NCBI GenBank assembly: GCA_003141835.1
Contig: PLNR01000006.1
Location: 14,558-78,557, forward strand
Length of the DNA stretch: 64,000 nt
Direction: 5' to 3'
DNA from: Candidatus Omnitrophota bacterium
GTDB lineage: Bacteria > Omnitrophota > Gorgyraeia > Pluralincolimonadales > Pluralincolimonadaceae
The notes below the pieces were generated by a model. That model saw only the letters and a list, made by a program, of their open reading frames with translations, was not told the DNA's origin and made no database searches. Position 1 is the first letter of the stretch. Each line of letters begins with the position of its first letter. The position numbers and the translations under genes are program-made. Positions 26,954 through 39,608 of the stretch are shown in pieces.

Positions 26954-27374
26954 TCTGGGCTTTTTCGACCATCTGGCGTTCCGAGGGATAGGTCATTATC
27001 TTCAAGGCTTCTTCCAGCGGAAGCCAACGCACTTCTTCGGCGTCAGTGTCGTGGTCGGCGGTGCTCCCCGATTCATATTTAACTAAATAGAAATATACCG
27101 TCTTGTGGACACGCGCATCGTCCTCATCCGAGTAGAACCAGTAATTTATCTTTCCGAGGTCATTCTCGATCGTGCCGGTGAGACCGGTCTCTTCCCTTAT
27201 CTCGCGGAGGGCCGCCTGCTGGGGGGTCTCGGGTTTCTCTATCTTTCCTTTGGGAAGGCAGAATATCTTACCCTCCCCGCGGGTGAGGATCGCTACTTCG
27301 GTCGTCTTGCCTGCCTTGCGGTACACGACGCCGCCCGCAGAGAATTGTTCTTTGGTCTTCATAACCTCACTCAT
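26937..27374 (-). CDS. NUDIX hydrolase
   Basis: Nudix box GKIEKPETPQQAALREIREETGL. Confidence 0.8.
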   Translation of the reverse strand: MSEVMKTKEQFSAGGVVYRKAGKTTEVAILTRGEGKIFCLPKGKIEKPETPQQAALREIREETGLTGTIENDLGKINYWFYSDEDDARVHKTVYFYLVKYESGSTADHDTDAEEVRWLPLEEALKIMTYPSERQMVEKAQNENRL

Positions 27375-27394
27375 GGTTGTGCCTGAGGGGACTC

Positions 27395-27420
27395 ATGGTT
27401 GATCCGATCGGATCAACCAT
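27395..27420. promoter_or_regulatory. Perfect 26-bp palindrome, a candidate operator upstream of the NUDIX gene
   Basis: atggttgatccgatcggatcaaccat is self-complementary. The direct repeat actcatggttg also occurs at 27369-27379 (overlapping the NUDIX ATG) and at 27391-27401. Confidence 0.4.
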
Positions 27421-27448
27421 TTCGCCATTACCCCTAATAGCGGGGCTC

Positions 27449-27545
27449 AAAAAAAAGGCCTCCTTCATTACCTCTGAGGTGAGCCGACATACAGCACCAC
27501 CGGGCAGCTTGAAACCGCCCAACCGTCGACATTCTAGTCGAAGGC
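27449..27545 (-). terminator. Structured element: a 16-bp long-range helix enclosing nested hairpins, followed by a U8 tract on the minus strand. Either an unusual intrinsic terminator or a small structured RNA.
   Basis: ggcctccttcattacc (27457-27472) pairs with ggtaatgaaggaggcc-like sequence at 27529-27545. Plus-strand A8 lies at 27449-27456. Inner hairpins include tcgac...gtcga and gggcgg...ctgccc. Confidence 0.35.
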
Positions 27546-27570
27546 AATGAAGGAGGTCCGGGGAGATTTA

Positions 27571-27777
27571 TTATTTCTTCTCTTTCTTCTCTTCCAGGGA
27601 GTCTTTTATCTCGCCGATCCCCGCCATCACCGCGAGAAGTCCGCCGAGTAAAAGTATCATGACCAGCCCGGATTTGAGGAAGCCCACTATATATTCTTCC
27701 CACCAGTTGACCAGGCCAACCACTCCGAGGACGATGGCGATCAGTCCGCCGATTACAGAGAGATATTTGCTCACCAT
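27571..27777 (-). CDS. Small membrane protein (2 TM), unknown function
   Basis: 68 codons. Hydrophobic core with a KKEKK tail. Confidence 0.4.
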   Translation of the reverse strand: MVSKYLSVIGGLIAIVLGVVGLVNWWEEYIVGFLKSGLVMILLLGGLLAVMAGIGEIKDSLEEKKEKK

Positions 27778-27839
27778 CTACCTCCTGAGACTTTCATTTC
27801 AAAAGAACCATTAGAATTATATCACCCAAAAGCGCTTTG

Positions 27840-28325
27840 TCAAGGGATTTTATAACCGATTTTTCTCAACAGGTCCTTCCGCCATTTGACGCCGGATTCG
27901 TCCTCTACGCCTTTCGGTTTCGCTCCGTCTATCACGCCGAGGATGCCCCTGCCGCCTTCGGTTTCGGCTATGACCAGCTCGACCGGGTTTGCGGTAGCAC
28001 AGTAGATCCCGCATACCTCGGGAATGCCTTTTATAGCGTTCAGGACGTTTATCGGGTATGAATCCTTCATTATGATGACAAAACAGTGCCCCGCGCCGAT
28101 GGCGAGAGCATTCTTTTCGGCAAGTTTTTTCAGGCCGTCATCAGTGCCCGTAGACCTGACAAGGCACGCGCCGGACGACTCGCAGAAAGCCATTCCGAAT
28201 TTTATTCCCGGCACCGCCGTCACCATCGCCTCGTGGATATCCTCGACCGTCTTGATGAAATGGGACTGGCCGATTATGATATTATATTCCGCGGGCTTCT
28301 CTATCTTTACGGTCTTGGTTTCCAT
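27840..28325 (-). CDS. Small conserved protein, tentatively adenosine-specific-kinase-like (PF04008-like) family
   Basis: IIGQSHFIKTVEDIHEAM...GIKFGMAFCESSG...AIGAGHCFVIIM...IYCATANPVELV resembles the archaeal PF04008 family. Assigned from memory only. Confidence 0.35.
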   Translation of the reverse strand: METKTVKIEKPAEYNIIIGQSHFIKTVEDIHEAMVTAVPGIKFGMAFCESSGACLVRSTGTDDGLKKLAEKNALAIGAGHCFVIIMKDSYPINVLNAIKGIPEVCGIYCATANPVELVIAETEGGRGILGVIDGAKPKGVEDESGVKWRKDLLRKIGYKIP

Positions 28326-28334
28326 GGTCCCCTC

Positions 28335-28790
28335 CTACCCTAATTTCGCAAGTTCTTCTGAGACCATCTGGCTGAGCATCTTGCCGTCAGCCGCGCCTTT
28401 GGCCTCTTCCATCGCCGTTTTCATCACTTTGCCCATATCGGCCCTGCCCTTAGCGCCCACCGCGGCTATCGCGGACTTGACGATTGCCTTCAATTCATCG
28501 GCCGGCATCATCTTCGGCATATACGACTCGAGTATCTTGAGCTCTGCCGTCTCCTTATCTACGAGGTCTTGCCTGTTGCCCTTCGCGAACCCGTCGATGG
28601 AGTCCCTGTGCTGTTTTATCTGCCTGGCTATGATGCCCATAACGTCCTTATCCTCAAGCTTCTCCGCCTTCTTCTCTATTTCGAGGTTCTTTATCCCGGC
28701 CTTGAGCATCCGCAAGGTCGAGAGCTTTATCGCGTCCCTGGCTTTCATCGCTTCCTTTATATCCGCGTCGATCTTCTCTGCAAGCGTCAT
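28335..28790 (-). CDS. GatB/YqeY domain protein
   Basis: LKEAMKARD...LKAGIKNLEIEK...ELKILESYMP pattern of the YqeY family. Confidence 0.75.
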   Translation of the reverse strand: MTLAEKIDADIKEAMKARDAIKLSTLRMLKAGIKNLEIEKKAEKLEDKDVMGIIARQIKQHRDSIDGFAKGNRQDLVDKETAELKILESYMPKMMPADELKAIVKSAIAAVGAKGRADMGKVMKTAMEEAKGAADGKMLSQMVSEELAKLG

Positions 28791-29500
28791 CTCTTATCCC
28801 CCTTTTTATATACGATTTTTGATATCCAGATCGAAAGTTCGTACAAAAACAGCATCGGCACGGCCATCAGGCACTGCGTGAACGCGTCCGGCGTCGGCGT
28901 TATGACCGCGGCCGCGATAAATATCGCGACTATCGCGAATTTTCTGTTCCTGCTCAGGAAAGAGGGCGTCACTATGCCCAGCTTAGAAAGTATCATCACG
29001 ACGACCGGCAATTCGAATACTATCCCGAATGAGAGAAGCATCATTATCACAAAAGAAAGGTATTTGGAGATCGACAGTATCGGATAGACCTGAGGCCCGG
29101 CAAAGTCGACGAGGAACCTGAGCGACCACGGCAGGACAAAAAAATAGCAGAAGACCACCCCGCCCAAAAACAGCGTCACGGAGAACGGCAGCGCGAAGAC
29201 TACCACCCTCCTCTCTTTTTGCGTCAGCCCGGCCGATACGAAAGCCCATACCTGGTAAAGGACCAGCGGAGAGGCTATGAAGAGCCCGGTAAAGAAAGCG
29301 AGCTTGCAGTATTCGAAAAACGCCTCGGTCGGAGAGAAGAACGCGAGGTGGTCGACCGGCGGAAAGATCAAAAGGTCCAGGATCGCCTGTATCTTCAGGA
29401 AAGCGACGCAGGCGCAGACGATGACGGCTACCGCGGATACCAGTATCCGCCGGCGAAGCTCGTCAAGATGCTCCACGAGTGACATCTGTTTATCGGCCAT
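28787..29500 (-). CDS. tatC: Twin-arginine translocase subunit TatC
   Basis: LVEHLDELRRRIL... and six TM segments with TatC conserved motifs. Confidence 0.9.
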   Translation of the reverse strand: MADKQMSLVEHLDELRRRILVSAVAVIVCACVAFLKIQAILDLLIFPPVDHLAFFSPTEAFFEYCKLAFFTGLFIASPLVLYQVWAFVSAGLTQKERRVVVFALPFSVTLFLGGVVFCYFFVLPWSLRFLVDFAGPQVYPILSISKYLSFVIMMLLSFGIVFELPVVVMILSKLGIVTPSFLSRNRKFAIVAIFIAAAVITPTPDAFTQCLMAVPMLFLYELSIWISKIVYKKGDKR

Positions 29501-29514
29501 ATCGTGCGGGATGT

Positions 29515-29679
29515 TTAATCTTTTTTGGGTGACTGGGAATCGTCTTCTTTCATCGCCTTCTTGAACTCATTGATGGCCTTGCCTAATGAGCGAGCGATCT
29601 CGGGAAGGCGCGCCGCCCCGAAGACGAGAAGGACGATGATAAGGATGACTACCAATTCGGGAAAACCGATATTGAACAT
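29515..29679 (-). CDS. tatA: Twin-arginine translocase subunit TatA/E. The start is set at the internal Met, preceded by a GGAGG RBS.
   Basis: [41 protein letters not shown]. The longer 72-codon ORF adds an implausible 18-aa extension. Confidence 0.85.
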
Positions 29680-29752
29680 TTGGGCCTCCGTTTTATCTAC
29701 GGAGATTATAGCACAAGGATAAAAGCGAGGCAAGGCCCGTCGTAGGTTGTTT

Positions 29753-29944
29753 ATATAAGCGGAATGTCCCGAAGTGACACGTCCCGCTTATTCCTATTCG
29801 GGTTGCCTACGGCGCTTTGAGAAAGAACGTTATCCTGCGCGTCCTTTATTATAACAGAGCCATAGATATCATAGGTATACTTTTCTATGACGCCGGAGGA
29901 GGGGTCGGTGAGCTCTGTGACGGAGCCAAGGCCGTCGGAGGATA
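29753..29944 (-). pseudogene. Orphan Rhs core-end fragment 2. Truncated, with no toxin domain, and disrupted by repeat element C.
   Basis: Minus-strand frame encodes ...ELTDPSS.VIEKYTYDIYGSVIIKDAQDNVLSQSAVGNP, homologous to Rhs residues upstream of DPMGL. It then diverges into [15 protein letters not shown] inside the repeat element. Confidence 0.7.
29755..29786. repeat. Half-length member of the repeat family (element C): tgtccc-N3-gtgacacgtccc
   Basis: tataagcggaatgtcccgaagtgacacgtcccgc matches the right arm of elements A and B and the junction elements D and C'. Confidence 0.65.
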
Positions 29945-29995
29945 GTTATGTGAGCGGAGGGTGTACTGAAGTGACGCGTTCCGGTTCATCCACCG
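29945..29995. repeat. Degenerate half-length member of the repeat family (element C') at the 5' junction of orphan fragment 2
   Basis: ttatgtgagcggagggtgtactgaagtgacgcgttccgg is collinear with element D (ttatatgagtggagtgtctccc...aagtgacacgtcccc). Confidence 0.55.
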
Positions 29996-30010
29996 GTTCA
30001 TCCTATATTT

Positions 30011-30400
30011 TTATACGATTCTATACGAGGCGTGGGATTCAATATGGCTTTTGTCCCATCCGTCTTTATTAAGACGCCATTTATCACCCTGTGGGATGCT
30101 ATCAAATAAATGCAAATGAACTATTTCTGCTTTACTCCAAATAGCGTTTTTATATCTAAGGGTTAAAATCAATATTTTACCTTTAATGCCAGAAAATGAT
30201 ATCTCTTCGTCCAATCTAACAACCGCATCTTCATTTTTATAATATCCAGGAATAAAATCTACGACTTCTCCATAATACGCGTTTTTCCCGCTGAGCCATT
30301 CAGGGCTAGTTGAGTACCCACCCCACAGCTTAACTCTATTACCAATTTTCAATCTTTTTCTATTAAATAAATTTAATAACAAAAGTTTCATTCCTATCAT
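30011..30400 (-). CDS. Candidate immunity protein for the orphan Rhs toxin cassette
   Basis: Lies immediately downstream with ATGA overlap. It is strongly AT-rich, about 33% GC against a roughly 57% background. Its 129 aa show no similarity to the other immunity candidate. Confidence 0.5.
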   Translation of the reverse strand: MIGMKLLLLNLFNRKRLKIGNRVKLWGGYSTSPEWLSGKNAYYGEVVDFIPGYYKNEDAVVRLDEEISFSGIKGKILILTLRYKNAIWSKAEIVHLHLFDSIPQGDKWRLNKDGWDKSHIESHASYRIV

Positions 30401-31269
30401 TTAGGCCACCTCCATCCTCTATAATATTCTTTACCGGCACCACCCTCTATATCGCGTGGACCTCGCACTGGCTCCCAAGGTTTAACATCTATCTTGCGAA
30501 CCGCTGTTCCTGTGTTTCCGCCCGCTGATTCTTTAAGATTTAAAGCCTTATATGCTTCATTGCCAGGTTCATATGGCGGCTTGTTTCCGCGCACCATAAA
30601 ACGAGATTCATATGCCTCATTACCCTTCGAATAATATTGCCAATAACTACCGTTGTTCATTTGAGACCCTGTCAATGCCAATATCGATGCCGTAAGGGAA
30701 ATGTCCTTACAGAAACCGGAAGCATTCTCCAGGGAGGGATTCGCCATAAACTTTCCAGTGCCTTCTCCCAGATGACCTATGTCGGAAGGAATATTTAAAA
30801 TGTTCGTGCCTAAATCTACTACGCTGGATGCAACAGTGGCGCCAATTATATCATACGTGGTGGTAACATTACTAAAAATCATGTCTTTCAAAGTTGAGTT
30901 TTTTCCTTCAACCCATCCCTTTAACCTGTCATACCATGGGCACTTCCCCATCGGATCCGTGTAGTTAATCGGGTTATTCGAGCAATACGCATAGAGGTTT
31001 ATGCCCGCGGAGTAGCCGACAGGGTCTGTCTGGAGGAAGCGGCCTATCTTGGGGTTGTAGTAACGGGCCCTGTAGTAATAGAGGCCTGTCTCCGGGTCAA
31101 GGGCCCTTGAGGTGAAGAAATAAGGGTTGCCTACGGCGCTTTGAGAAAGAACGTTATCCTGCGCGTCCTTTATTATAACAGAGCCATAGATATCATAGGT
31201 ATACTTTTCTATGACGCTGGAGGAGGGGTCGGTGAGCTCCGTGATGGAACCGAAGCCGTCAAAGGATAG
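30397..31269 (-). CDS. Orphan Rhs C-terminal toxin cassette. It comprises a 5'-truncated Rhs core fragment and a variable C-terminal domain. There is no in-frame start codon before the Met of DPMG.
   Basis: The open frame encodes LSFDGFGSITELTDPSSSVIEKYTYDIYGSVIIKDAQDNVLSQSAVGNPYFFTSRALDPETGLYYYRARYYNPKIGRFLQTDPVGYSAGINLYAYCSNNPINYTDPMGK followed by a 184-aa C-terminal domain. The fragment is about 90% identical to the main Rhs core end. The codon-by-codon translation finds no ATG/GTG/TTG upstream of 30951. Confidence 0.75.
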   Translation of the reverse strand, partial: LSFDGFGSITELTDPSSSVIEKYTYDIYGSVIIKDAQDNVLSQSAVGNPYFFTSRALDPETGLYYYRARYYNPKIGRFLQTDPVGYSAGINLYAYCSNNPINYTDPMGKCPWYDRLKGWVEGKNSTLKDMIFSNVTTTYDIIGATVASSVVDLGTNILNIPSDIGHLGEGTGKFMANPSLENASGFCKDISLTASILALTGSQMNNGSYWQYYSKGNEAYESRFMVRGNKPPYEPGNEAYKALNLKESAGGNTGTAVRKIDVKPWEPVRGPRDIEGGAGKEYYRGWRWPK

Positions 31270-31270
31270 T

Positions 31271-31324
31271 TATATGAGTGGAGTGTCTCCCTTGCGGGGA
31301 TTTTGCCTAAAGTGACACGTCCCC
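31271..31324. repeat. Half-length member of the repeat family (element D) at the 5' junction of the orphan cassette
   Basis: tatatgagtggagtgtctcccttgcggggattttgcctaaagtgacacgtcccc. It shares the GTGACACGTCCCC motif with elements C and E and with the right arms of A and B. Confidence 0.65.
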
Positions 31325-31338
31325 AATTATCCTCGCAG

Positions 31339-31725
31339 CTAGGTTCGTATTAACTGCGATGCAATTATTTTTTCAAGTGCTTCTTTAAGAAGATTAAATT
31401 GTTTCTCTATCGTATTCCAATCTAGAGGCACAGTAAAAATTATAGGTTCTACCTTCCACCAATATCGCCTACCAAATATCGTGTCTTTAAAAGTGCAACC
31501 CCAAACCAAAAAGTTATTTAAATTTTCCCCGTCCAAATAAATCTGTATTTGTTTTGTTACTTTTTTATTTTTCCATGAAAGCGACCTTTCTGGCCAATCA
31601 TGGTAATTCTTAGTTAATTTCATTTGATGCTCTTCGGCATAATGTTTTATTTCTTTATCTATTTCCAAAAGTGAACTTTCCCCTTCTAAAAAGTTATTCT
31701 TTTTATTATCTAATGAGTTTTTCAT
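31339..31725 (-). CDS. Candidate cognate immunity protein of the main Rhs toxin
   Basis: ATGA overlap with the rhs stop. AT-rich (about 33% GC). 128 aa with no recognizable domain. Confidence 0.5.
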   Translation of the reverse strand: MKNSLDNKKNNFLEGESSLLEIDKEIKHYAEEHQMKLTKNYHDWPERSLSWKNKKVTKQIQIYLDGENLNNFLVWGCTFKDTIFGRRYWWKVEPIIFTVPLDWNTIEKQFNLLKEALEKIIASQLIRT

Positions 31726-34700
31726 TGTATATATTGTATTCCTCCTCCTGAATGACCAAATTTTGGTGGTACTCTTTCAGGCCCTCTTAAATATCTAAAA
31801 GAGCTTGGTCTAACTTCTCTAACTGCTGTCCCGGGATTATATGCTGGCAAGCTTAACTTCTCTGCGGCTTCTGTACCAACTTTGTATGGCGCGTTCCATC
31901 CTTCTCCCCTTGTTAAATATTTTGAAGTATATGCAGGATTGTCCGCAGGACCGTACTGATAAAATGGCCTTGTTGAATACGCAGCGGAGGCTGCAACCGC
32001 AGAAATGGATGCCGCCCTCGAGACATCTTTGGAGACTGATGCAGCAGCCATCCAGTAATTACCTTGGCTACTATACCGTTCTGCATCTGCCCATCCTTCA
32101 CCTAGTCTAAGGAGATCTGAAGTTCCATGTAAAACGTCAGCTGCCGTGGAAACAAGGCCATTCCAAACCCAAACCTTTGGATTCTGCGTGTAAAATCCTT
32201 CGGCTGTATCTATTCCTTCATCTAACAATTTAGCTGACTCAGAACCCCATCCACCCTTGCACAACCCCATTGGATCAGTGTTGTTTATTGGATTATTCGA
32301 GCAGTAGGCATAAAGATTCATCCCTGCAGAGTATCCTACCGGGTCGGTCTGGAGGAAGCGGCCTATCTTGGGGTTGTAGTAACGGGCCCTGTAGTAATAC
32401 AGGCCTGTCTCGGGATCAAGGGCCCTTGCTGTGAAGAAATAGGTGTTGCCTACGGCGCTTTGAGAAAGAACGTTATCCTGCGCGTCTTTTATTATAACAT
32501 TGCCGAAGATATCATAGGTATATTTTTCTATTACGCTGGAGGAGGGGTCGGTAAGCTCCGTGATGGAACCGAGGCCGTCGGTGTGGTAATAGTAGGTTGC
32601 CTGGCCGGCCTTTAAGCATACGGGCTCGTCTATTCCCGGGCCGTAGATGAACTTCCTTAAAAGGGCCCCTGTTGAATCATATTCGGCGATTACCTGGTCG
32701 CCGTCATAGATGTAGCCGGTTATCCGGCCGTTGACATCTTTCCTTATTCTCCTTCCGGTGGGATCGTAAGTGTATGCGGCTGTTGTGCCGGTCTTTGACG
32801 CCGAGACCATCCTGTTTTCATAATCAAAGGAATAAGCGTTCGTGCCGTCGCTTGTCAGGTTCCCGTTACCATCGTAGGAATACGGGGTCGAGTTGACCTG
32901 GGTGTATTGGTTTAAGTTATTCGAGCTGTAGAGCTCAACCACCCCGCCTGAGACCTGGGTGCGGTTGCCGATCAAGTCGTAATCATATGAGACGTCCGCG
33001 AACGGGTATCCTGAAGGGTAATTTACCCCTTTTACGCGGTAGGTTTTGTCGTATGTGTAGCTATGGGTCCCCTGCTGAGTCGTCATGGTCAGCCTGTTGG
33101 AGGCGTTATCATAGGTATAGGCGAAACTTGAGAAGACGGAGTTTCCGTTGACCTTCTTAAGCAGGCGGCCTATGTTATCATATGTATAGGCGGAACGCGT
33201 GTCATTATTGTATTTGATCGTCAACCTTCGAGATAAAGGATCGTATGTATACTGCGATACTGCCTGGCCTGTCTGGTCGACAATGCTCTTCAGGCGGTTC
33301 AGCTGGTCATATGTGTAGGTTAAATACGCGCCGTCGGGATAAGTCAGCTTTGTCCTGTTTCCGGCCTTATCGTATTCATTAGCGACGATCTTACCGCTTG
33401 TGGTTGTCCGCAGGACACGGTTCAAGTTATCATATTGATATGAGATCGTCTGGCCCGCCCCGCTTATTGAAGATAGGCGCGAAGCGATATCGTAAGCGTA
33501 GCTGATCACAGGGCCTGAGGAAGGCGCTTTGGATACCAGGCGGTTTAAGTTATCGTAGGAAAAGGTTATCGCATCTCCCCTTCTTGTCGTCTTTAAAGCA
33601 AGGTTTGAGTTCAGGTCGGGGGTATATGTTTCGCTTGAACCGTCAGGGAATGTCGCCTTGATAAGCCATCCCGAAGCGTCATAATCATAGCAAGTAACGG
33701 CGCCGTTTGAGTCTGTGATGCTTTTTAGTTTGCCGTTCCTGTCGTAGGTATTCTCAACCCTGCCGCCCTCAGCGTCGGTCGTCCTGATAAGCAGGTTGCG
33801 CTCATCGTACGCATATGCAGTCGTATTGCCGTTGGGGTCAGCCTGGCTTATTTTATTCCCCGCGCCGTCATAGGAGAAGCTTGTCGTGACGGTCTCCGAA
33901 GCCGAAGGATGTTCCGCGACAGAGACCAGGCGGTCGCGCTTGTCATAAATGTTCTCGACCGCCTGCCAAATTGAGCCCGCGTCATCAAGCTGGCGCTCAA
34001 TTTTAACGGGATTCCTGTTTTTGTCATACGTATATTTGGTCTGGAAATTAAATGGCGCCGGCGAGATAGACTTCAGGAGCAGGCCTATTTTGTTGTATTG
34101 GTTCGTGGCCTTCCTGCCCAACGGGTCGGTTGCGGATATGGGATTGCCTAGAACGTCATAGCCAAATAGTGTTGTAGCGTTTATCCCGCCGTAATTGAGT
34201 ATCTTTTGCGAGAGATATCCGTTCGTGTCATAAGTATTCCTGGTCACTATGCCGTTAGGGTCTGTCTGGTTAACGGGTTGGCCGTAGCTGTTATAAGTGA
34301 AAAGCTCGATAGGCGTCTGCCCGTTTACGGCCGGATGCGTCAGCCTGACCAGGTTGCCGCGGGTATCATAGCCATAGGTTGTCGTATTTCCCCTTGGGTC
34401 TGTGGCTGTCTTCACAAAGCTATACTTTGGTTCATAGGTAAACCTGCTTACGCGGCCTAAGGGGTCGGTCACGGATGTGCAGTTCCCCTTATCGTCATAA
34501 GCGTAATATGTCGTGCGCCCTTCGGGATCCGTCATGCTTGTCTTGTTGAGATCGTCGTCATAAGTATAGCGGATTACATCGCCGATAGGGCCGGTTGCCG
34601 CGGTTATGCTATCGTCCTTGTCATAGTCATATTTTGTGGTATAGCCGCGTTCGTTGGTTTCTGTCGTGACCCGCAGGGACCTGTTATGCGTAAAACTCAC

Positions 34701-35630
34701 AGCGCTGCCGTCGGGATAGGTGATCGCGACGCACTTAAGGAAATTAGGCCCTCCGGCTGTTGAGTCAAACGAGAAAGACGTCCTGTTATTATTAGGGTCT
34801 GTTATCGAGGTGATCTGCCAGTAAACGTTTTTCACGTAGATCATGCCGTTATAGAAATCGAACAGGGAATAACCGTAGCCTATACGGTTTCCCTCGGGAT
34901 CAGTGACCGAAGACAAGTTCTTGGAAGCGTCGTAAGAATAAGCGGTGACCTGGTTATTCGGCCACCTGATCGATGATATCAAGGAGTCCGCGTTATAGGA
35001 AATAACCAGGCGCCTGCCGGAATTATCCGATATCGAGGACGGAAGCCCATTACTATAAGAGATGGATATCGGGTTCCCGTTCCTGTCGGTTATATTCTGG
35101 AGCTTTCCGTCAGAGCGGAAATTGTAGGTCTTTCCGTTCTTGCGGACCAGGATCCACGAGCTCCTGTCTTTTCCCGTTAATTTTGAGAAATTTCCCTTCG
35201 GCGGAGTCCATTTACCGCCTTCCCGGTTATATACCTCTCTCAGGCCTTCCTCATTCTGGATCTCAACGCAAGTCGGTGAAAGGACTTTTACATTTATTTC
35301 ATAGTTGAAGCTCCAGCCGCGCCCGAAGAGGCCCATATAATCCTTGCCGGATATGCCGTAATAGTCCCTTGTTATCTCAAGAGAGCTATCTCCGCGGCCC
35401 GGGACCAAAATATCCTGGTTGGAGGCGTGAAGCCTCCCATTTGTCGCGTAGACCGGATCGGCAAGAGGCGCGTTATTTTTAATTTCTCCCTTCATGGGCC
35501 GCTTATCAACGTTGTTGTCATTTGGGGGCGTGCCGCAGCCGAAGGCGAGTGAGCTAAAATAAACCATAAGGATGACGGAAACAGCCGCGATTTTTTCAAG
35601 ATGCCGGGGACCACTTAAGCGCCGTGTCAT
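31722..35630 (-). CDS. rhs: Rhs/YD-repeat polymorphic toxin (1302 aa) with an N-terminal signal peptide. The Rhs core ends at the DPMGL motif and is followed by a roughly 190-aa variable C-terminal toxin domain.
   Basis: Dozens of YD repeats (YxYDxxGNR/L...). RHS-associated core ...ARYYNPKIGRFLQTDPVGYSAGMNLYAYCSNNPINNTDPMGL. Signal sequence ILMVYFSSLAFGC. Confidence 0.9.
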   Translation of the reverse strand: MTRRLSGPRHLEKIAAVSVILMVYFSSLAFGCGTPPNDNNVDKRPMKGEIKNNAPLADPVYATNGRLHASNQDILVPGRGDSSLEITRDYYGISGKDYMGLFGRGWSFNYEINVKVLSPTCVEIQNEEGLREVYNREGGKWTPPKGNFSKLTGKDRSSWILVRKNGKTYNFRSDGKLQNITDRNGNPISISYSNGLPSSISDNSGRRLVISYNADSLISSIRWPNNQVTAYSYDASKNLSSVTDPEGNRIGYGYSLFDFYNGMIYVKNVYWQITSITDPNNNRTSFSFDSTAGGPNFLKCVAITYPDGSAVSFTHNRSLRVTTETNERGYTTKYDYDKDDSITAATGPIGDVIRYTYDDDLNKTSMTDPEGRTTYYAYDDKGNCTSVTDPLGRVSRFTYEPKYSFVKTATDPRGNTTTYGYDTRGNLVRLTHPAVNGQTPIELFTYNSYGQPVNQTDPNGIVTRNTYDTNGYLSQKILNYGGINATTLFGYDVLGNPISATDPLGRKATNQYNKIGLLLKSISPAPFNFQTKYTYDKNRNPVKIERQLDDAGSIWQAVENIYDKRDRLVSVAEHPSASETVTTSFSYDGAGNKISQADPNGNTTAYAYDERNLLIRTTDAEGGRVENTYDRNGKLKSITDSNGAVTCYDYDASGWLIKATFPDGSSETYTPDLNSNLALKTTRRGDAITFSYDNLNRLVSKAPSSGPVISYAYDIASRLSSISGAGQTISYQYDNLNRVLRTTTSGKIVANEYDKAGNRTKLTYPDGAYLTYTYDQLNRLKSIVDQTGQAVSQYTYDPLSRRLTIKYNNDTRSAYTYDNIGRLLKKVNGNSVFSSFAYTYDNASNRLTMTTQQGTHSYTYDKTYRVKGVNYPSGYPFADVSYDYDLIGNRTQVSGGVVELYSSNNLNQYTQVNSTPYSYDGNGNLTSDGTNAYSFDYENRMVSASKTGTTAAYTYDPTGRRIRKDVNGRITGYIYDGDQVIAEYDSTGALLRKFIYGPGIDEPVCLKAGQATYYYHTDGLGSITELTDPSSSVIEKYTYDIFGNVIIKDAQDNVLSQSAVGNTYFFTARALDPETGLYYYRARYYNPKIGRFLQTDPVGYSAGMNLYAYCSNNPINNTDPMGLCKGGWGSESAKLLDEGIDTAEGFYTQNPKVWVWNGLVSTAADVLHGTSDLLRLGEGWADAERYSSQGNYWMAAASVSKDVSRAASISAVAASAAYSTRPFYQYGPADNPAYTSKYLTRGEGWNAPYKVGTEAAEKLSLPAYNPGTAVREVRPSSFRYLRGPERVPPKFGHSGGGIQYIQ

Positions 35631-35642
35631 TAGTTTTCTCCG

Positions 35643-36380
35643 TTAGTTAGTTTTTTCAATGTCTTCTATGTTCGCCTTTGCCTGTTCGGCAAGTTTGGTG
35701 TCCGGACCTGCCCTCAAAACTTCCTTGAATGAATCAAGCGCGCTCACGCGGTCCCCGAGAAAGAAATAACATCTGCCTTTCTCAAGCCAGACCCATTGCA
35801 CCGTTTCCGGGGTAAACGTTCCTTCTTTAAGGGCGCTTGCATATTCTTCTATCGCGTCGCCGTATCTTGTCCTCTCGCAGTAGCACCAGCCGAGATTTAT
35901 ACGGATGTAGCCGGCCAAACCGCTCTTTTCGGAATAATGAAGGGCTTTTTCATAGGATTCGATCGCCTGGTCATATCTTTTCAGATGTTGAAAGGATTCG
36001 CCCGCCGAATAATACAATCTTAGTATATCCATCTTGCTCCCGGGATAGCGCTTAGAAAAATCATCACATAAACGCAGGACATCGTCATACTTGGCTGAGC
36101 TTATCAGGGATGGCATTAACCGCTTCGTTATCGCGAGCCTCGCATCCCGCGTCATATTAGGGTCATTGAGAAGAGCTTCCTCGAATGGGTCTATCCCGCC
36201 GGAGGATGAGGCGTTTTCATCACAATTTATACCGTCAAGCTTGGGATCTATATAAAAAGACACCGCCTCTCTTTCATCGAGGAACGACTCTATCCTATTT
36301 ACCGCGTCAAGACGGCTGTCTTCAGCCGCATAAAGAAAAACGGGAATAACGAGAATAAGGCAAAAAACGACAGCGCGCAT
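35643..36380 (-). CDS. Secreted TPR-repeat protein
   Basis: Signal peptide plus TPR-like helical repeats (YYSAGESFQHLKRYDQAIESYEKAL...). Lies immediately upstream of rhs. Confidence 0.6.
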   Translation of the reverse strand: MRAVVFCLILVIPVFLYAAEDSRLDAVNRIESFLDEREAVSFYIDPKLDGINCDENASSSGGIDPFEEALLNDPNMTRDARLAITKRLMPSLISSAKYDDVLRLCDDFSKRYPGSKMDILRLYYSAGESFQHLKRYDQAIESYEKALHYSEKSGLAGYIRINLGWCYCERTRYGDAIEEYASALKEGTFTPETVQWVWLEKGRCYFFLGDRVSALDSFKEVLRAGPDTKLAEQAKANIEDIEKTN

Positions 36381-37205
36381 TTAGAACTCCGCTAACGGGT
36401 CTGTCAGGTCGTCCGGCGTCCCCAACTTTTTATCTTCACCTTCCGAGCCGTATTTTTGGTATTTGATAAACTGGTTTGCCCTCGCGACAGAGCCGTCAAG
36501 ATTCCTTAAACCCTCGTACATCTTATCCATGATGTGTGTCATCAAGGCCGGATCCGAGGCCGGACAGGCCATGAACGCTTTCTTAAAACAGGAAAGAGCT
36601 TCTTTGTTCGAGCCTTCGGCCATGAATGCGTCTCCTAATTCAGCGAAACTCTCGGCTCTCTGGCTATTCGCGGATGGATAGTTGTCTATGAGTTTCTGGA
36701 ACTCGGCCTTAGCTTGAGCCGGATTTTTCATTTTTATATACGCCCTGCCTATCATTAATTGGGCGACCGGAGCATTATAATCATTCGGATAATCCGAAAT
36801 TATTTTACGATACTCGGCTATCGCCGCATCGGGCTTATTGAGACAATTTAATGTTATCTGGGCTATTTCGAACCGGGCCCTGGAACACTCGGCCGTGATC
36901 GACGGATACAGCTTCGGCACTTTTTCATATTCATCTATGGCTTTTTGATATTTTTGTTTTGAATAGTGGTAACAGCCTATATAATACTGCGCCTTGGCGC
37001 ACAACAGCGGTTCGCCGGGATTATTAATTATGAAGTCCTGAAGGTCCTGCAGCTTGTCCCAGCCGCCGTCCCACCAGAAATTAGGGATATCCCTGACTAT
37101 GCCGGAGAATTGCGCGTCGGCAGAGATGCCATCAGGGAAACATGGCGCAGTGAGATTCAATACTAAAAGTGAAGTAATCATGAGGATAAAAACCAGTTTT
37201 TTCAT
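36381..37205 (-). CDS. Secreted TPR-repeat protein
   Basis: Signal peptide plus TPR motifs (AQYYIGCYHYSKQKYQKAIDEY..., AQLMIGRAYIKMKNPAQAKAEF...). Stop/start-adjacent to the previous TPR gene. Confidence 0.6.
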   Translation of the reverse strand: MKKLVFILMITSLLVLNLTAPCFPDGISADAQFSGIVRDIPNFWWDGGWDKLQDLQDFIINNPGEPLLCAKAQYYIGCYHYSKQKYQKAIDEYEKVPKLYPSITAECSRARFEIAQITLNCLNKPDAAIAEYRKIISDYPNDYNAPVAQLMIGRAYIKMKNPAQAKAEFQKLIDNYPSANSQRAESFAELGDAFMAEGSNKEALSCFKKAFMACPASDPALMTHIMDKMYEGLRNLDGSVARANQFIKYQKYGSEGEDKKLGTPDDLTDPLAEF

Positions 37206-37292
37206 TTGCGACTTTCTTTTTTAGTGTTTTTTCACGATTTATGCCCACGTGAGCAATTTATCACATAATTTTCAATTGTCAAACTAAATTAG

Positions 37293-37322
37293 TTGCTTTT
37301 TTATAGCAAAATTTAATATAAT
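37293..37322 (+). promoter_or_regulatory. Candidate sigma70 promoter for the spermidine-synthase-like gene
   Basis: TTGCTT-N18-TATAAT in an AT-rich tract immediately upstream of 37329. Confidence 0.4.
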
Positions 37323-37328
37323 ATACCT

Positions 37329-39608
37329 GTGCAAAATAAACCGGGGTGTCCTAACGTGACACGTCCCCTGACGTTTGCGGTATTTACTTTCGGTTTCACC
37401 GCGATGGCCGTCCAGATACTGATGATGCGGGAACTCCTGGTGGTCTTCTACGGGAACGAGCTTTCCGCAGGCGTCATGCTCGCCTCCTGGCTCTTCTGGG
37501 TCGCGGCGGGAAGCTTCGCAGCAAGGTTCAAAAAGTTCCGGGAAGAGATATTCCACTTACTACTCCTTTCCGTTTCTATAATCGCGCCGGCTACTATATA
37601 TTTTATAAGAGAGTTAAGGAACATCCTCGGCGTCTCCGCCGGCGAGCTGATCGGGCCGGTGCCGATGGCTTTATCCGTTTTTATCCTGCTCGCTCCGGCC
37701 TGCCTGGTCTTCGGTTCCCTTTTCGCGGTCAGCTGCCGCCTCGCCTCACCGGAAACGCCTTCGGCACCGGCCACAGCCGGAAAGATCTACATGATAGAAT
37801 CGCTTGGCGCTGTCGCCGGAGGCGTCGCGTTCAATCTGGTCTTGATCTATATCTTCGCCCCCTTACAGATAGCTCTATTCTGCGGCGTATTGAACGCCAT
37901 CGCCGTTCTTGTAGTCGCCGACAGGAATAAGGCTCCTATAAGATGGGCGGCGACTTTGGTATTCATGTGTTCCGTTTCCGTTTATATCATGTTCGGCTCA
38001 GGACTGAACGATTTCGAGATGCGTCAGGCGCAATGGAAGGGCCTCGAGCTGATAACCGTAAAAGATTCCAAATACGGGAATATCGCGTTGACAAAGCTCG
38101 GCTCCCAATTCAACCTGTTCGAGAACGGGCTCCTTACCGCGGCGACCAACGACCCGCTCACAGCCGAAGAATCGGTCCATTACGCGATGCTCGAGCACCC
38201 GGCGCCCAAAAAAATCCTGCTTATAGGCGGGGCGTTGAACGGCGCACTGGATGAGGTGCTGAAACATCCGGTCGAGTCGGTCGATTGCATCGAGCTCGAC
38301 CCCGAATCTGTGGAGGTCGCAAAAGAAAGGTACCCTGCGGGATCGCTCGCGGGCTTATCCGACCGCAGGGTAAAGATGCATTATCTTGATGCCAGGCTCT
38401 TTGTAAAGGAAAGAGCCCTGGCACTGGACGCGCCTTCCTCGCGATACGACGTAATAATACTTACCCTTCCGAACCCTTATACGGCGCAGATAAACAGGTT
38501 CTTCTCTTTTGAATTTTACGGGGAGGCCAGGCGCATACTTGACGCGAACGGCGTCTTCTCCTTCGGAGTGACGTCTTCAGGGGATTATATAAGCGCCGGA
38601 CAGGCCAGGTTCCTGAAGTGCCTCGTCCTTACCCTTTCAAAGCGTTTCCCCGATATAAAGATCATCCCGGGAGACAATAATTATTTCCTCGCCTCGCCTT
38701 CCGCCGGCATCCTGACATATGACTATAAGACGCTCGTCGCGAGGGCCAAAGAAAGAAACCTCGCGCTTAAATTCGTCAACGAACATTACCTGCCGGATAA
38801 GCTGGACCCGATGCGCGTAGAATACCTCGAGGGCGCGATAAAGGCCGCTAAGGGGGCAAAGATAAATTTCGACCTGCGGCCGGTCGGATATTATTATGAC
38901 CTGGTCCTTTGGTCGGCGCGGGTCGACCCGCGGCTCAAGTCTTTCCTTGAGGGGCTCAATACCTTCAACTGGGGGATAATATTGGGGATACTGGGTTTTG
39001 CCTTCATCGGCCTGACCCTGTTCCGCGGGAAGAGCGATTCCTTGAAACGGATGCCGTATTTCATCTCGATCGGGATTACTGGTTTCACTACGATGCTGCT
39101 GCAGGTGGTCCTTATACTGGCGTTCCAGTCGGCGTACGGCTACGTCTACTACAAGATGGGGCTTATATTCGCCTCGTTCATGCTGGGGCTTGCCGGCGGG
39201 AGTTACGCCGCAGCGGCCTCTAAGCCGTTTAAAAATGATGCGTCACTCGCTAAGCCGTACTTCAATATACAGGCCGCACTCTGCGCCTACTGCCTCCTAC
39301 TCCCGGTCGCGCTCCGTATGAATTGGGTCTCCGAGGGGTTCTTCCTGTTATTGCCGGCAGCCGCGGGGCTTTTGGGAGGGCTGCAGTTCACTATAGCGAA
39401 CAGGATATGTTCCGGCGGCAATAGGAATCTTGCGCCGGCGATCTACGCAGTCGACCTTATAGGCGCGTGCGCCGGATCGCTGTTGGCCGCCGCGGTAATA
39501 ATACCTGTCAAGGGAATGGACTTCGCGTGCATCTCGGTGGGGTTCGTGAATCTCGCGGTGCTGGTGTTACTCGCGGGCGGGGATCAGCTCTTCCTCTCTA
39601 AAACATAA
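37329..39608 (+). CDS. Fused polytopic membrane / spermidine synthase-like (polyamine aminopropyltransferase family) protein. The annotated start is GTG; the true start may be the GTG at 37356.
   Basis: N-terminal 7 TM and C-terminal 5 TM segments. Central SpeE-like domain KKILLIGGALNGALDEVLKHP...CIELDPESVEVAKERYP...YDVIILTLPNPYT. Confidence 0.75.
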   Translation: MQNKPGCPNVTRPLTFAVFTFGFTAMAVQILMMRELLVVFYGNELSAGVMLASWLFWVAAGSFAARFKKFREEIFHLLLLSVSIIAPATIYFIRELRNILGVSAGELIGPVPMALSVFILLAPACLVFGSLFAVSCRLASPETPSAPATAGKIYMIESLGAVAGGVAFNLVLIYIFAPLQIALFCGVLNAIAVLVVADRNKAPIRWAATLVFMCSVSVYIMFGSGLNDFEMRQAQWKGLELITVKDSKYGNIALTKLGSQFNLFENGLLTAATNDPLTAEESVHYAMLEHPAPKKILLIGGALNGALDEVLKHPVESVDCIELDPESVEVAKERYPAGSLAGLSDRRVKMHYLDARLFVKERALALDAPSSRYDVIILTLPNPYTAQINRFFSFEFYGEARRILDANGVFSFGVTSSGDYISAGQARFLKCLVLTLSKRFPDIKIIPGDNNYFLASPSAGILTYDYKTLVARAKERNLALKFVNEHYLPDKLDPMRVEYLEGAIKAAKGAKINFDLRPVGYYYDLVLWSARVDPRLKSFLEGLNTFNWGIILGILGFAFIGLTLFRGKSDSLKRMPYFISIGITGFTTMLLQVVLILAFQSAYGYVYYKMGLIFASFMLGLAGGSYAAAASKPFKNDASLAKPYFNIQAALCAYCLLLPVALRMNWVSEGFFLLLPAAAGLLGGLQFTIANRICSGGNRNLAPAIYAVDLIGACAGSLLAAAVIIPVKGMDFACISVGFVNLAVLVLLAGGDQLFLSKT
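37344..37369. repeat. Half-length member of the repeat family (element E) in the 5' region of the spermidine-synthase-like gene
   Basis: ggggtgtcctaacgtgacacgtcccc matches the right-arm consensus (G[GA]TGTCCC-N-GTGACACGTCCCC). Confidence 0.6.

Follow-up and report, generated by a model that had tools for sequence, protein, structure and literature searches.

Gene content and boundaries of the Rhs island

The DNA analysed here is a window of 64 kb inside a ~105-kb contig of a Candidatus Omnitrophota bacterium (assembly GCA_003141835.1, contig PLNR01000006.1); a look-up traced the window to the metagenome contig ERZ27254250:k141_277284. On its minus strand, at roughly 29730-37290, lies an Rhs island of ~7.6 kb whose genes form a tight series; the other genes over the 64 kb are all housekeeping genes. 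Read in the direction of transcription, the island starts with two genes for tetratricopeptide repeat (TPR) proteins, continues with the gene for a 1302-aa Rhs protein that ends in a variable C-terminal domain (CT), and then carries a small immunity gene candidate and an array of orphan modules. The features ahead of the orphan array are as follows.

37255-37282, minus strand: promoter-like site (TTGACA-16-TAAATT with TG), ~50 nt 5' of the first TPR gene; candidate operon promoter, a consensus match only
36381-37205, minus strand: first island gene, TPR protein of 274 aa (Pfam TPR families) with a hydrophobic signal-like N-terminal segment
35643-36380, minus strand: TPR protein of 245 aa (Pfam TPR families) with a signal-like N-terminus; the gene abuts the 274-aa gene and stops 12 nt before the Rhs start
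31722-35630, minus strand: main Rhs gene, 1302 aa, with a signal at aa 1-32, DUF6531 at aa 58-132, a YD-repeat shell, the Rhs-associated core, and the toxin domain CT1
35535-35630, minus strand: signal peptide with lipobox MVYFSSLAFG-C (Cys32), from a PS00013-type regular expression match
31725-32261, minus strand: CT1 toxin, 179 aa, with a helical N-terminal half and a ~85-aa catalytic domain (roughly 31725-31988) of predicted TNT/Tne NAD glycohydrolase (NADase) fold
31339-31725, minus strand: imm1, 128 aa, GC content 0.307; cognate immunity candidate with an ATGA overlap with the Rhs stop

Searches of Pfam and NCBIfam matched the Rhs protein to RHS_repeat (PF05593, E=1.2e-87, 10 stretches), TIGR01643 (E=8.9e-60), DUF6531, and YD_repeat_2x, and placed Rhs_assc_core (TIGR03696, E=1.2e-24) at aa 1039-1123. 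A sequence search of the PDB retrieved the Rhs cocoons 8h8a, 7q97, and 8qjc with E values down to 8.5e-63, and also YenC2 and TccC at E ~1e-13. The core end reads ...TDPVGYSAGMNLYAYCSNNPINNTDPMGL and closes with ...NNTDPMGL, with DPMGL at aa 1119-1123, and is followed by 179 variable residues; a DPxG...DPxGL motif of the autoproteolysis type is visible in the sequence. The repeats, the core with its CT, and the downstream immunity gene were thus all found, and they support the assignment of the locus, as judged from sequence, to the Rhs/YD-repeat polymorphic toxins with a cognate immunity gene. An earlier reading of the same DNA, made from the letters alone and referred to here as the original prediction, had described a 1302-aa Rhs protein with a signal peptide, a core ending at DPMGL and a variable CT, followed by an AT-rich immunity candidate with ATGA coupling and preceded directly by two secreted TPR proteins. 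This description is borne out, with a CT measured at 179 aa instead of roughly 190 aa, a signal that appears more exactly to be a lipoprotein signal with Cys32 in its lipobox, and TPR genes that also form part of the island and accompany this Rhs subfamily as conserved partners.

The extent of the island was defined by comparison with related genomes. In the nearest species-representative genome of GTDB, Omnitrophica WOR_2 bacterium RIFCSPLOWO2_12_FULL_51_24 (TatC 80% identical), ~240 bp separate a membrane spermidine-synthase-like gene from tatA/tatC, and no TPR or Rhs genes occur there. Because this gap is empty, the segment that runs from the TPR genes through the last junction represents an insertion of ~7.6 kb. 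A closer relative (GCA_903957415.1, here L127) has the island at the same site, and the 3' island boundary was mapped against an island-free relative (L005), from which the 274-aa TPR gene is missing. The CTs and immunity genes have a GC content of 0.31-0.46, down from 0.53; the Rhs core stands at 0.504 and the window at 0.529. Promoter and terminator scans of the region gave a number of sites not above chance, and an Rfam scan of 27000-38500 gave no match. An assembly artefact was rejected, since imm1 and imm2 are each present on three long contigs (two of 50-200 kb and one of 0.2-1 Mb) with mostly the same proteins as neighbours; in these look-ups, two undisplayed contigs were collapsed as sharing mostly the same neighbouring genes.

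Several observations concern the flanks. The island sits directly upstream of a tatA promoter (TTGCCT-17-TATAAT, extended -10 TG) at 29705-29733 on the minus strand, and the short string GCTATAA is present at each end of the island (29705-29733 and 37290-37300), where it may mark a crossover point or a duplicated target site. On the other side, 37329-39608 (plus strand) encodes a protein of ~750 aa in which numerous predicted membrane segments surround a spermidine/spermine synthase domain; in relatives, this gene is conserved beside tatA. At 27571-27777 (minus strand), amid housekeeping genes, a 67-68-aa membrane protein has a precomputed Pfam match to the magnetosome-associated family MamI (PF26391), and no further magnetosome genes were seen in the window.

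Orphan modules downstream of the main gene

Beyond imm1, the end of the Rhs core recurs in fragments that are interleaved with copies of one junction sequence.

31270-31338, minus strand: junction B, the repeated inter-cassette junction, with the motif GGGACGTGTCACTT at 31310-31323; ends in the TAA that closes the frame 5' of orphan 1
30946-31269, minus strand: core end of orphan 1, ~106 codons without a start codon, homologous to the main core end (Rhs_assc_core, E=5.3e-26)
30397-30945, minus strand: CT2, toxin domain of the orphan, continuing the reading frame of the orphan core end; CT1 family, with E for Q in the GGxG-x-[EQ]-Y motif
30011-30400, minus strand: imm2, orphan immunity gene, 129 aa, GC content 0.344; ATGA overlap with the CT2 stop
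29946-30010, minus strand: junction C, second copy, with the motif at 29969-29982 and the same breakpoint into the core end as in junction B
29800-29945, minus strand: remnant of orphan 2, 48 core-end codons ending in ...SAVGNP, 93% identical to orphan 1
29730-29799, minus strand: junction D, third copy, with a stable hairpin and the motif at 29772-29785; followed by ~12 nt of a fourth core-end start (GACGGGCCTTG) and then by the tatA promoter

The core ends of the main gene and orphan 1 aligned over 315 nt with 89.2% identity and a longest exact run of 53 nt, and a repeat search recovered the same relationship as a 300-nt repeat at 88%, together with a three-copy family of 163 nt at 93% and 81%. 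Across the 106 core-end codons, the main gene and orphan 1 differ at 24 synonymous and 8 non-synonymous positions, and this excess of synonymous differences suggests that the orphan core end belonged to a functioning gene while it evolved. Between the TAA at ~31272 and the stop at 30397, the orphan 1 frame continues through 290 codons without interruption, and its first ATG, GTG, or TTG is the Met of DPMG at 30951. The orphan 2 copy reads ...SQSAVGNP and then diverges. All orphans are preceded by the same junction with an identical breakpoint into the core (...CTCAYATAACTATCCTYYGACGG...), and since a further junction copy is followed by ~12 nt of core start, the array consists of the main gene and three orphan modules. 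Decay rises along this array, from an intact module through a core-only remnant to the ~12-nt vestige. The original prediction had proposed a duplication of the last ~106 core codons at ~90% identity, fused without a start codon or an internal stop to a second CT with its own AT-rich immunity candidate, and a shorter third copy cut off after ...SAVGNP by a repeat element; each of these was recovered at the positions given above. Three findings go beyond that prediction: the fourth, vestigial module, the 5' junction common to all orphans, and the likely activity of the toxin.

The orphan modules, each made up of a junction, a core end, a CT, and an immunity gene, may be former or alternative 3' ends of the main gene that were displaced downstream and decay with distance. 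Homologous recombination between the two 315-nt copies could bring orphan 1 back into the main gene, and imm2 could protect the cell whether or not this happens. On this reading, the orphan would be a reservoir for recombination, and its immunity gene would not be the main reason for its persistence. The strongest competing explanation sees the modules as decaying leftovers of cassette displacement, kept only as their immunity genes protect against toxin-bearing neighbours; we judge it somewhat unlikely. The gradient of decay along the array and the lack of a start codon in orphan 1 both favour the leftovers explanation, and orphan immunity genes 3' of effector-immunity pairs are common (PMC10539506). 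Against it, orphan 1 has kept 290 open codons (chance ~1e-6, from the stop-codon frequency), its core-end differences from the main gene are mostly synonymous, and the 53-nt exact run within 315 nt at 89% identity suffices for homologous recombination.

A related metagenomic locus, L088 (Ga0272448_1043548), bears on both explanations. Its order is a Rhs core end with a different, apparently disrupted CT, a CT1-like toxin with an imm1-like gene, and a CT2 fragment with an imm2-like gene. The CT1-like toxin (70% identical) is fused to an orphan core end and is directly followed by the imm1-like gene (62%), and the CT2-like catalytic fragment (54%) consists of the last 77 aa only and precedes an intact imm2-like gene (78%). 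The core ends of this locus share only 42-51% identity with those of the window, over 55-64 aligned residues. A divergent Rhs therefore precedes the same cassettes in unchanged order, and CT1 is the orphan there, an arrangement that fits the displacement of older tips by newer ones. L088 also shows immunity genes outliving their toxins, and the truncated CT2 beside an intact imm2 weighs against the reservoir reading and favours retention of the immunity gene. In the same locus (1-1310), the CT of the first module stops after ~57 aa and continues in another frame, so that it is probably frameshifted, and a 203-aa open reading frame (ORF) unrelated to imm1 or imm2 follows.

Related tips were also found in the main position. 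P0030 is a full-length DUF6531-Rhs protein of 1342 aa with a CT2-type tip, its C-terminus being 48% identical to CT2, and no T6SS (type VI secretion system) genes were found in its 11-kb contig. The occurrence of the CT1 type as an orphan in L088 and of the CT2 type as the tip of P0030 lends indirect support to an exchange of CTs by recombination. Four further loci (L094, L095, L123, and L124) contain arrays in which core ends number 3 to 7 or more. At 3500-11650 of L123 (Ga0163152_10000002, a 678-kb contig) and in L124, at least seven core-end copies were seen in 12 kb, two of them fused to CT2-like domains, so that this toxin family also has orphan arrays far longer than that of the window.

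The junction motif belongs to an imperfect palindrome of ~27 nt, GGGACGTGTCAC.T..GGACA..CCG, of which four copies occur, all on the minus strand (37341-37367, 31310-31323, 29969-29982, and 29772-29785), against 0.2 expected by chance. It may be a small element resembling repetitive extragenic palindromic (REP) sequences or miniature inverted-repeat transposable elements (MITEs). Compared with L127 and L005, the 5' end of the spermidine-synthase-like gene contains the copy at 37341-37367 as an insertion, which alters the N-terminus of the protein. The annotated starts of this gene differ because of the inserted repeat, being a GTG at 37329 in the ORF list and a position nine codons later according to the gene caller. 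A hairpin at 29750-29800 reached -9.4 kcal/mol (z=-4.2), and the other copies of the junction motif showed no significant fold (z from -0.03 to +1.1). An integron-like or otherwise site-specific cassette mechanism was dropped, as only one copy folds significantly, neither of the related loci L005 and L127 contains the motif, and the island contains no integrase gene.

Toxin domains and immunity genes

CT1 and CT2 share 33% identity over 132 aa (E=7e-15), and no similarity between imm1 and imm2 was found either by sequence comparison or by hhalign (probability 0.1%). The two CTs are thus diverged members of one family paired with unrelated immunity proteins, as originally predicted. Scans of CT1, CT2, imm1, and imm2 against Pfam and NCBIfam gave no match. 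A word-seeded search of 5.8 billion proteins with the CT family found 27 relatives, and a full search of 1.84 billion cluster representatives with the CT profile found 285 at E<=0.001. Among the 150 of these 285 matches that were listed, those including the catalytic half end at most ~20 residues from the C-terminus, apart from a few. The carriers among the matches listed are DUF6531-Rhs, teneurin-like (TTR, NHL, YD-shell), and SpvB-Rhs proteins of up to 5095 aa.

The helical N-terminal half of the CT is also joined to other, unrelated C-terminal tails, and therefore behaves as a separate module that may serve in entry or translocation. In P0122, P0123, P0128, P0131, P0137-P0140, P0147, P0148, and P0154-P0159, this half (WWEKLEEGxYYGTGxG...TGN.LW..PG..AALWTPETYQ) is followed by other short tails, such as ...PHYHRR... 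and ...GPHKYPHLQFG....

The catalytic domain of ~85 aa has the consensus (F/Y)W(Q/R)Y...LTRG..PPY..G..A...L.LP..NP.TAVR.V......GPR.....G..GGG.(E/Q)Y. Its predicted model, with a predicted local distance difference test (pLDDT) score of 89.8, has the TNT/Tne NADase type of fold, a clade of the ADP-ribosyltransferase (ART) fold. The modelled fold is therefore a toxin fold, and not the housekeeping fold that the original prediction had named as an objection to itself. Apart from matches to the Rhs/YD-shell carriers, Pfam TNT was the commonest match of the family; seven of 133 members matched it, at E=0.0023 in the best case, and the region covered is FGQPGGGxQY. Across 61 diverse members, Tyr21 is invariant, Arg36 (the Arg of LTRG) is present in 52, and the last-strand residue after GGGx is E in 51 and Q in 10; CT1 has Q and CT2 has E at this position. 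In TNT-type NADases, one strictly conserved Gln positions the nicotinamide ribose, and aromatic residues also line this site (PMC10539506). Taken together with the modelled fold, these residues suggest that the catalytic domain of CT1 most likely hydrolyses NAD(P)+ in the cytoplasm of the target.

Several results weigh against NADase activity. CT1 and CT2 gave no Pfam TNT match, the best family member reaching 18.8 bits against a cut-off of 27. A Foldseek comparison with the PDB returned nothing significant, and searches of PDB sequences that used the family profile and P0009 as queries returned nothing relevant. Most members, including CT2, have Glu where TNT-type NADases keep Gln, and the presumed residue match to the solved NADases (Gln1452, Q822) is based on sequence position and predicted strands. 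Since Glu is found in most members, ADP-ribosyl transfer has to be considered for the family, and the CT might be an ART acting on a protein or nucleic-acid target instead of an NAD(P)+ glycohydrolase. The combination of this Glu with the conserved Arg recalls ARTs of the R-S-E type, and Tne5 illustrates that an ART fold does not predict chemistry reliably (PMC13285283). However, TNT is the only Pfam toxin family touched, and the main toxin CT1 has the Gln of TNT-type enzymes, so we regard an ART as unlikely and NAD(P)+ hydrolysis as the preferred reading of CT1.

The pairing of the toxin with small downstream genes extends beyond this locus. In 34 of the 39 related metagenomic loci with a toxin of this family, the toxin stop is followed by a small ORF whose start is at most 150 nt away. 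These small ORFs fall into a cluster of 28, a cluster of 6, the imm1 type, the imm2 type, and singletons, and profile-profile comparison between the groups showed no relation (probability at most 2%). At least four unrelated immunity families thus accompany one toxin fold. A signal peptide is lacking from both imm1 and imm2.

Predicted export of the Rhs protein and comparison with known systems

The N-terminus of the Rhs protein, MTRRLSGPRHLEKIAAVSVILMVYFSSLAFG-C, has a basic n-region (R3, R4), a hydrophobic core of 17 residues, and the lipobox Cys32. The lipobox call means that [LVI..][AST..][GAS]-C lies no further in than residue 35, preceded by a basic n-region and a hydrophobic h-region; the pattern used is a regular expression of the PS00013 type and not the PROSITE entry itself. 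The Phe at lipobox position -2 is unusual and counts against lipidation. The Cys motif is kept in Rhs orthologues at 44-48% identity (SAFGC, CAFAC, and AASAC) and is not kept in more distant DUF6531-Rhs proteins. A search with the N-terminal 330 aa found only 20 proteins, two of them close, and the lipobox-Rhs subfamily is therefore thinly sampled.

The two TPR proteins accompany this subfamily. The 245-aa protein has only six database homologues, and the four that were looked up (L127, L128, L129, and L130) show the order 274-aa-like TPR gene, 245-aa-like TPR gene, and Rhs gene as far as each contig reaches. The full TPR-TPR-Rhs order is kept in L127, L128, and L130, and the 274-aa gene is kept 5' of the orthologous Rhs gene in L127, L128, and L129. 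From this shared arrangement, the TPR-TPR-Rhs triad is a conserved unit. The 274-aa protein has a sub-threshold likeness to BamD/YfiO and to the TPR region of Slam, and the TPR proteins may act as chaperones, as envelope tethers, or in surface export. Mobile-element genes were seen at two related loci. In L128 (3604-5184), the orthologous Rhs ORF stops at 549 aa, and ~430 nt further on lies an opposite-strand ORF of 382 aa that, by eye only, looks like an rve-type (DDE) transposase; in L087 (8569-9153), an IS200-type Y1 transposase gene lies 3' of the immunity gene.

Two explanations concern the target and the route of the toxin. Omnitrophota, an uncultured phylum of very small cells, are in part predatory or host-dependent, and the Rhs protein could accordingly be a Tc-toxin-like or predation toxin used against non-kin prey or hosts, with immunity only preventing self-poisoning before export. 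Experimentally confirmed predators exist among Omnitrophota (bioRxiv 10.1101/2023.11.21.568195), NADase toxins aimed at hosts, such as TNT, are also paired with an immunity factor (PMC10539506), and CTs of this family occur on SpvB-type and teneurin-like carriers as well. However, the Rhs protein and the neighbouring genes include no TcA or TcB (SpvB) genes, and orphan immunity arrays with diversified immunity families are hallmarks of conflict between related bacteria. We therefore consider a predation toxin quite improbable.

As the original prediction had stated, no VgrG, PAAR, or T6SS gene lies nearby. The Rhs protein contains no PAAR, VgrG, or T6SS-type Pfam domain, and the called genes of the window include no VgrG, Hcp, PAAR, Eag/DUF1795 chaperone, or tss genes. 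A T6SS effector would be expected to have a PAAR or VgrG region or T6SS genes nearby, and to be a cytoplasmic substrate free of a Sec signal; neither was seen for this protein. The Sec/lipoprotein signal, the lack of a region for PAAR or VgrG interaction, and the lack of T6SS genes nearby together argue against delivery by a T6SS. What weighs on the other side is that this negative result covers 64 kb of the genome, so that a T6SS could be encoded elsewhere. That the protein is an ordinary T6SS cargo effector with its secretion genes elsewhere is very improbable: T6SS effectors make up most of the characterised Rhs toxins of diderms, and the closest homologues of solved structure are associated with a T6SS, but T6SS substrates leave from the cytoplasm, so that a conserved Sec/lipoprotein signal is unexpected on one, no prePAAR region was found, and the conserved partners are TPR proteins and not T6SS adaptors.

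We consider the following explanation, as a whole, to be probable. A horizontally acquired island in this Omnitrophota genome would encode, in one operon, two exported TPR proteins, an Rhs protein with a lipoprotein signal, and a cytoplasmic immunity protein. The Rhs protein would be exported by Sec, probably lipidated at Cys32, and anchored in the envelope, and its export may lead to a WapA-like, contact-dependent delivery. The YD-repeat shell would enclose the 179-aa toxin and release it by the usual Rhs autoproteolysis at DPMG-L. With its NADase-like tip, the toxin would then hydrolyse NAD(P)+ in the target cytoplasm while imm1 blocks it in the producer, and displaced orphan cassettes would follow the main gene. 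A bolder proposal is that the triad of two TPR genes and a lipobox DUF6531-Rhs gene represents an undescribed, T6SS-independent route of presentation and delivery in a diderm, in which a Sec-exported, lipid-anchored Rhs protein with two periplasmic TPR partners delivers a new TNT-like NADase subfamily to neighbours or prey, with tips switchable through orphans that share a junction. We put this forward tentatively, as a possibility that is more doubtful than not.

Among known systems, the locus is closest in organization to enterobacterial rhs loci. Main rhs genes with orphan rhs-CT/rhsI modules in Salmonella Typhimurium, E. coli, and Serratia were reportedly described by Jackson in 2009, Poole in 2011, and Koskiniemi in 2014, and Rhs toxins with orphan cassettes are textbook knowledge in Proteobacteria, where they are T6SS-borne. 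As in those loci, a full-length Rhs protein here ends in PxxxxDPxGL and is followed by a variable CT and an immunity gene, and the orphans are 3' core-end fragments without a start, with other CTs, their own immunity genes, and a lower GC content. At the level of sequence, every feature of the main-plus-orphan rhs class is present. In contrast to enterobacterial rhs, the host belongs to Omnitrophota, the locus has no T6SS linkage, the Rhs protein carries a lipoprotein signal, and two TPR genes lie upstream. Moreover, the orphans share one identical 5' junction with a short palindromic motif, and both CTs come from one toxin family and not from different ones.

The tip was compared with the TNT-type NADases (PF14021) Tne2 (6b12), Tse6/Tne1 (4zv4), Serratia Rhs1-CT/Tne3 (6xtd), M. 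tuberculosis TNT (4qlp), and AfNADase (6yge). It is predicted to share their fold without their curated sequence signature: identities are 12-21%, scores fall below the Pfam threshold, and the conserved Gln is mostly replaced by Glu. Serratia Rhs NADases have been described (PMC10539506). The immunity proteins are mutually unrelated and, in the scans of Pfam and NCBIfam, match no curated family.

Three other systems share parts of this architecture. WapA of Bacillus subtilis, a monoderm, is a Sec-dependent, T6SS-independent, wall-associated Rhs/YD toxin with a tRNase CT; the present protein resembles it in its N-terminal signal peptide, YD-repeat shell, variable CT with immunity gene, and lack of a T6SS, and differs from it in the lipobox-type signal, the two conserved TPR partners, and the NADase-like CT. 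The SitA proteins of Myxococcus are lipoprotein polymorphic toxins without an Rhs shell that are delivered by outer-membrane exchange. They share with the present protein the lipobox signal, the cognate immunity genes, and an apparent independence from a T6SS, but the Rhs shell here, the lack of homology, and the absence of visible TraA/TraB genes limit the likeness to the lipoprotein signal. The TcB-TcC cocoons of Tc toxins likewise combine a YD-repeat cocoon, an aspartyl autoprotease motif, and an enclosed C-terminal toxic domain. Unlike Tc toxins, the island has no TcA or TcB/SpvB genes, and its immunity genes and orphan arrays point to bacterial targets.

No interbacterial toxin system of Omnitrophota was described in the literature searched, and the locus extends the DPxGL boundary, displaced orphans, and the diversification of immunity genes to this phylum. 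The conserved lipoprotein signal and the two conserved TPR partners point to a different solution for export. The locus also defines an uncurated, NADase-like toxin family of ~285 cluster representatives, with Rhs, teneurin-like, and SpvB-type carriers and at least four unrelated immunity families, which is useful for annotation and for asking how different immunity proteins block one fold. In L088, nature has provided an experiment: the cassettes and their order match those of the window, the Rhs core ahead of them is divergent, and the roles of main and orphan toxin are shifted. The basic logic of the locus is ordinary; its lineage, its architecture of lipobox and TPR partners, and its uncurated toxin family are new.

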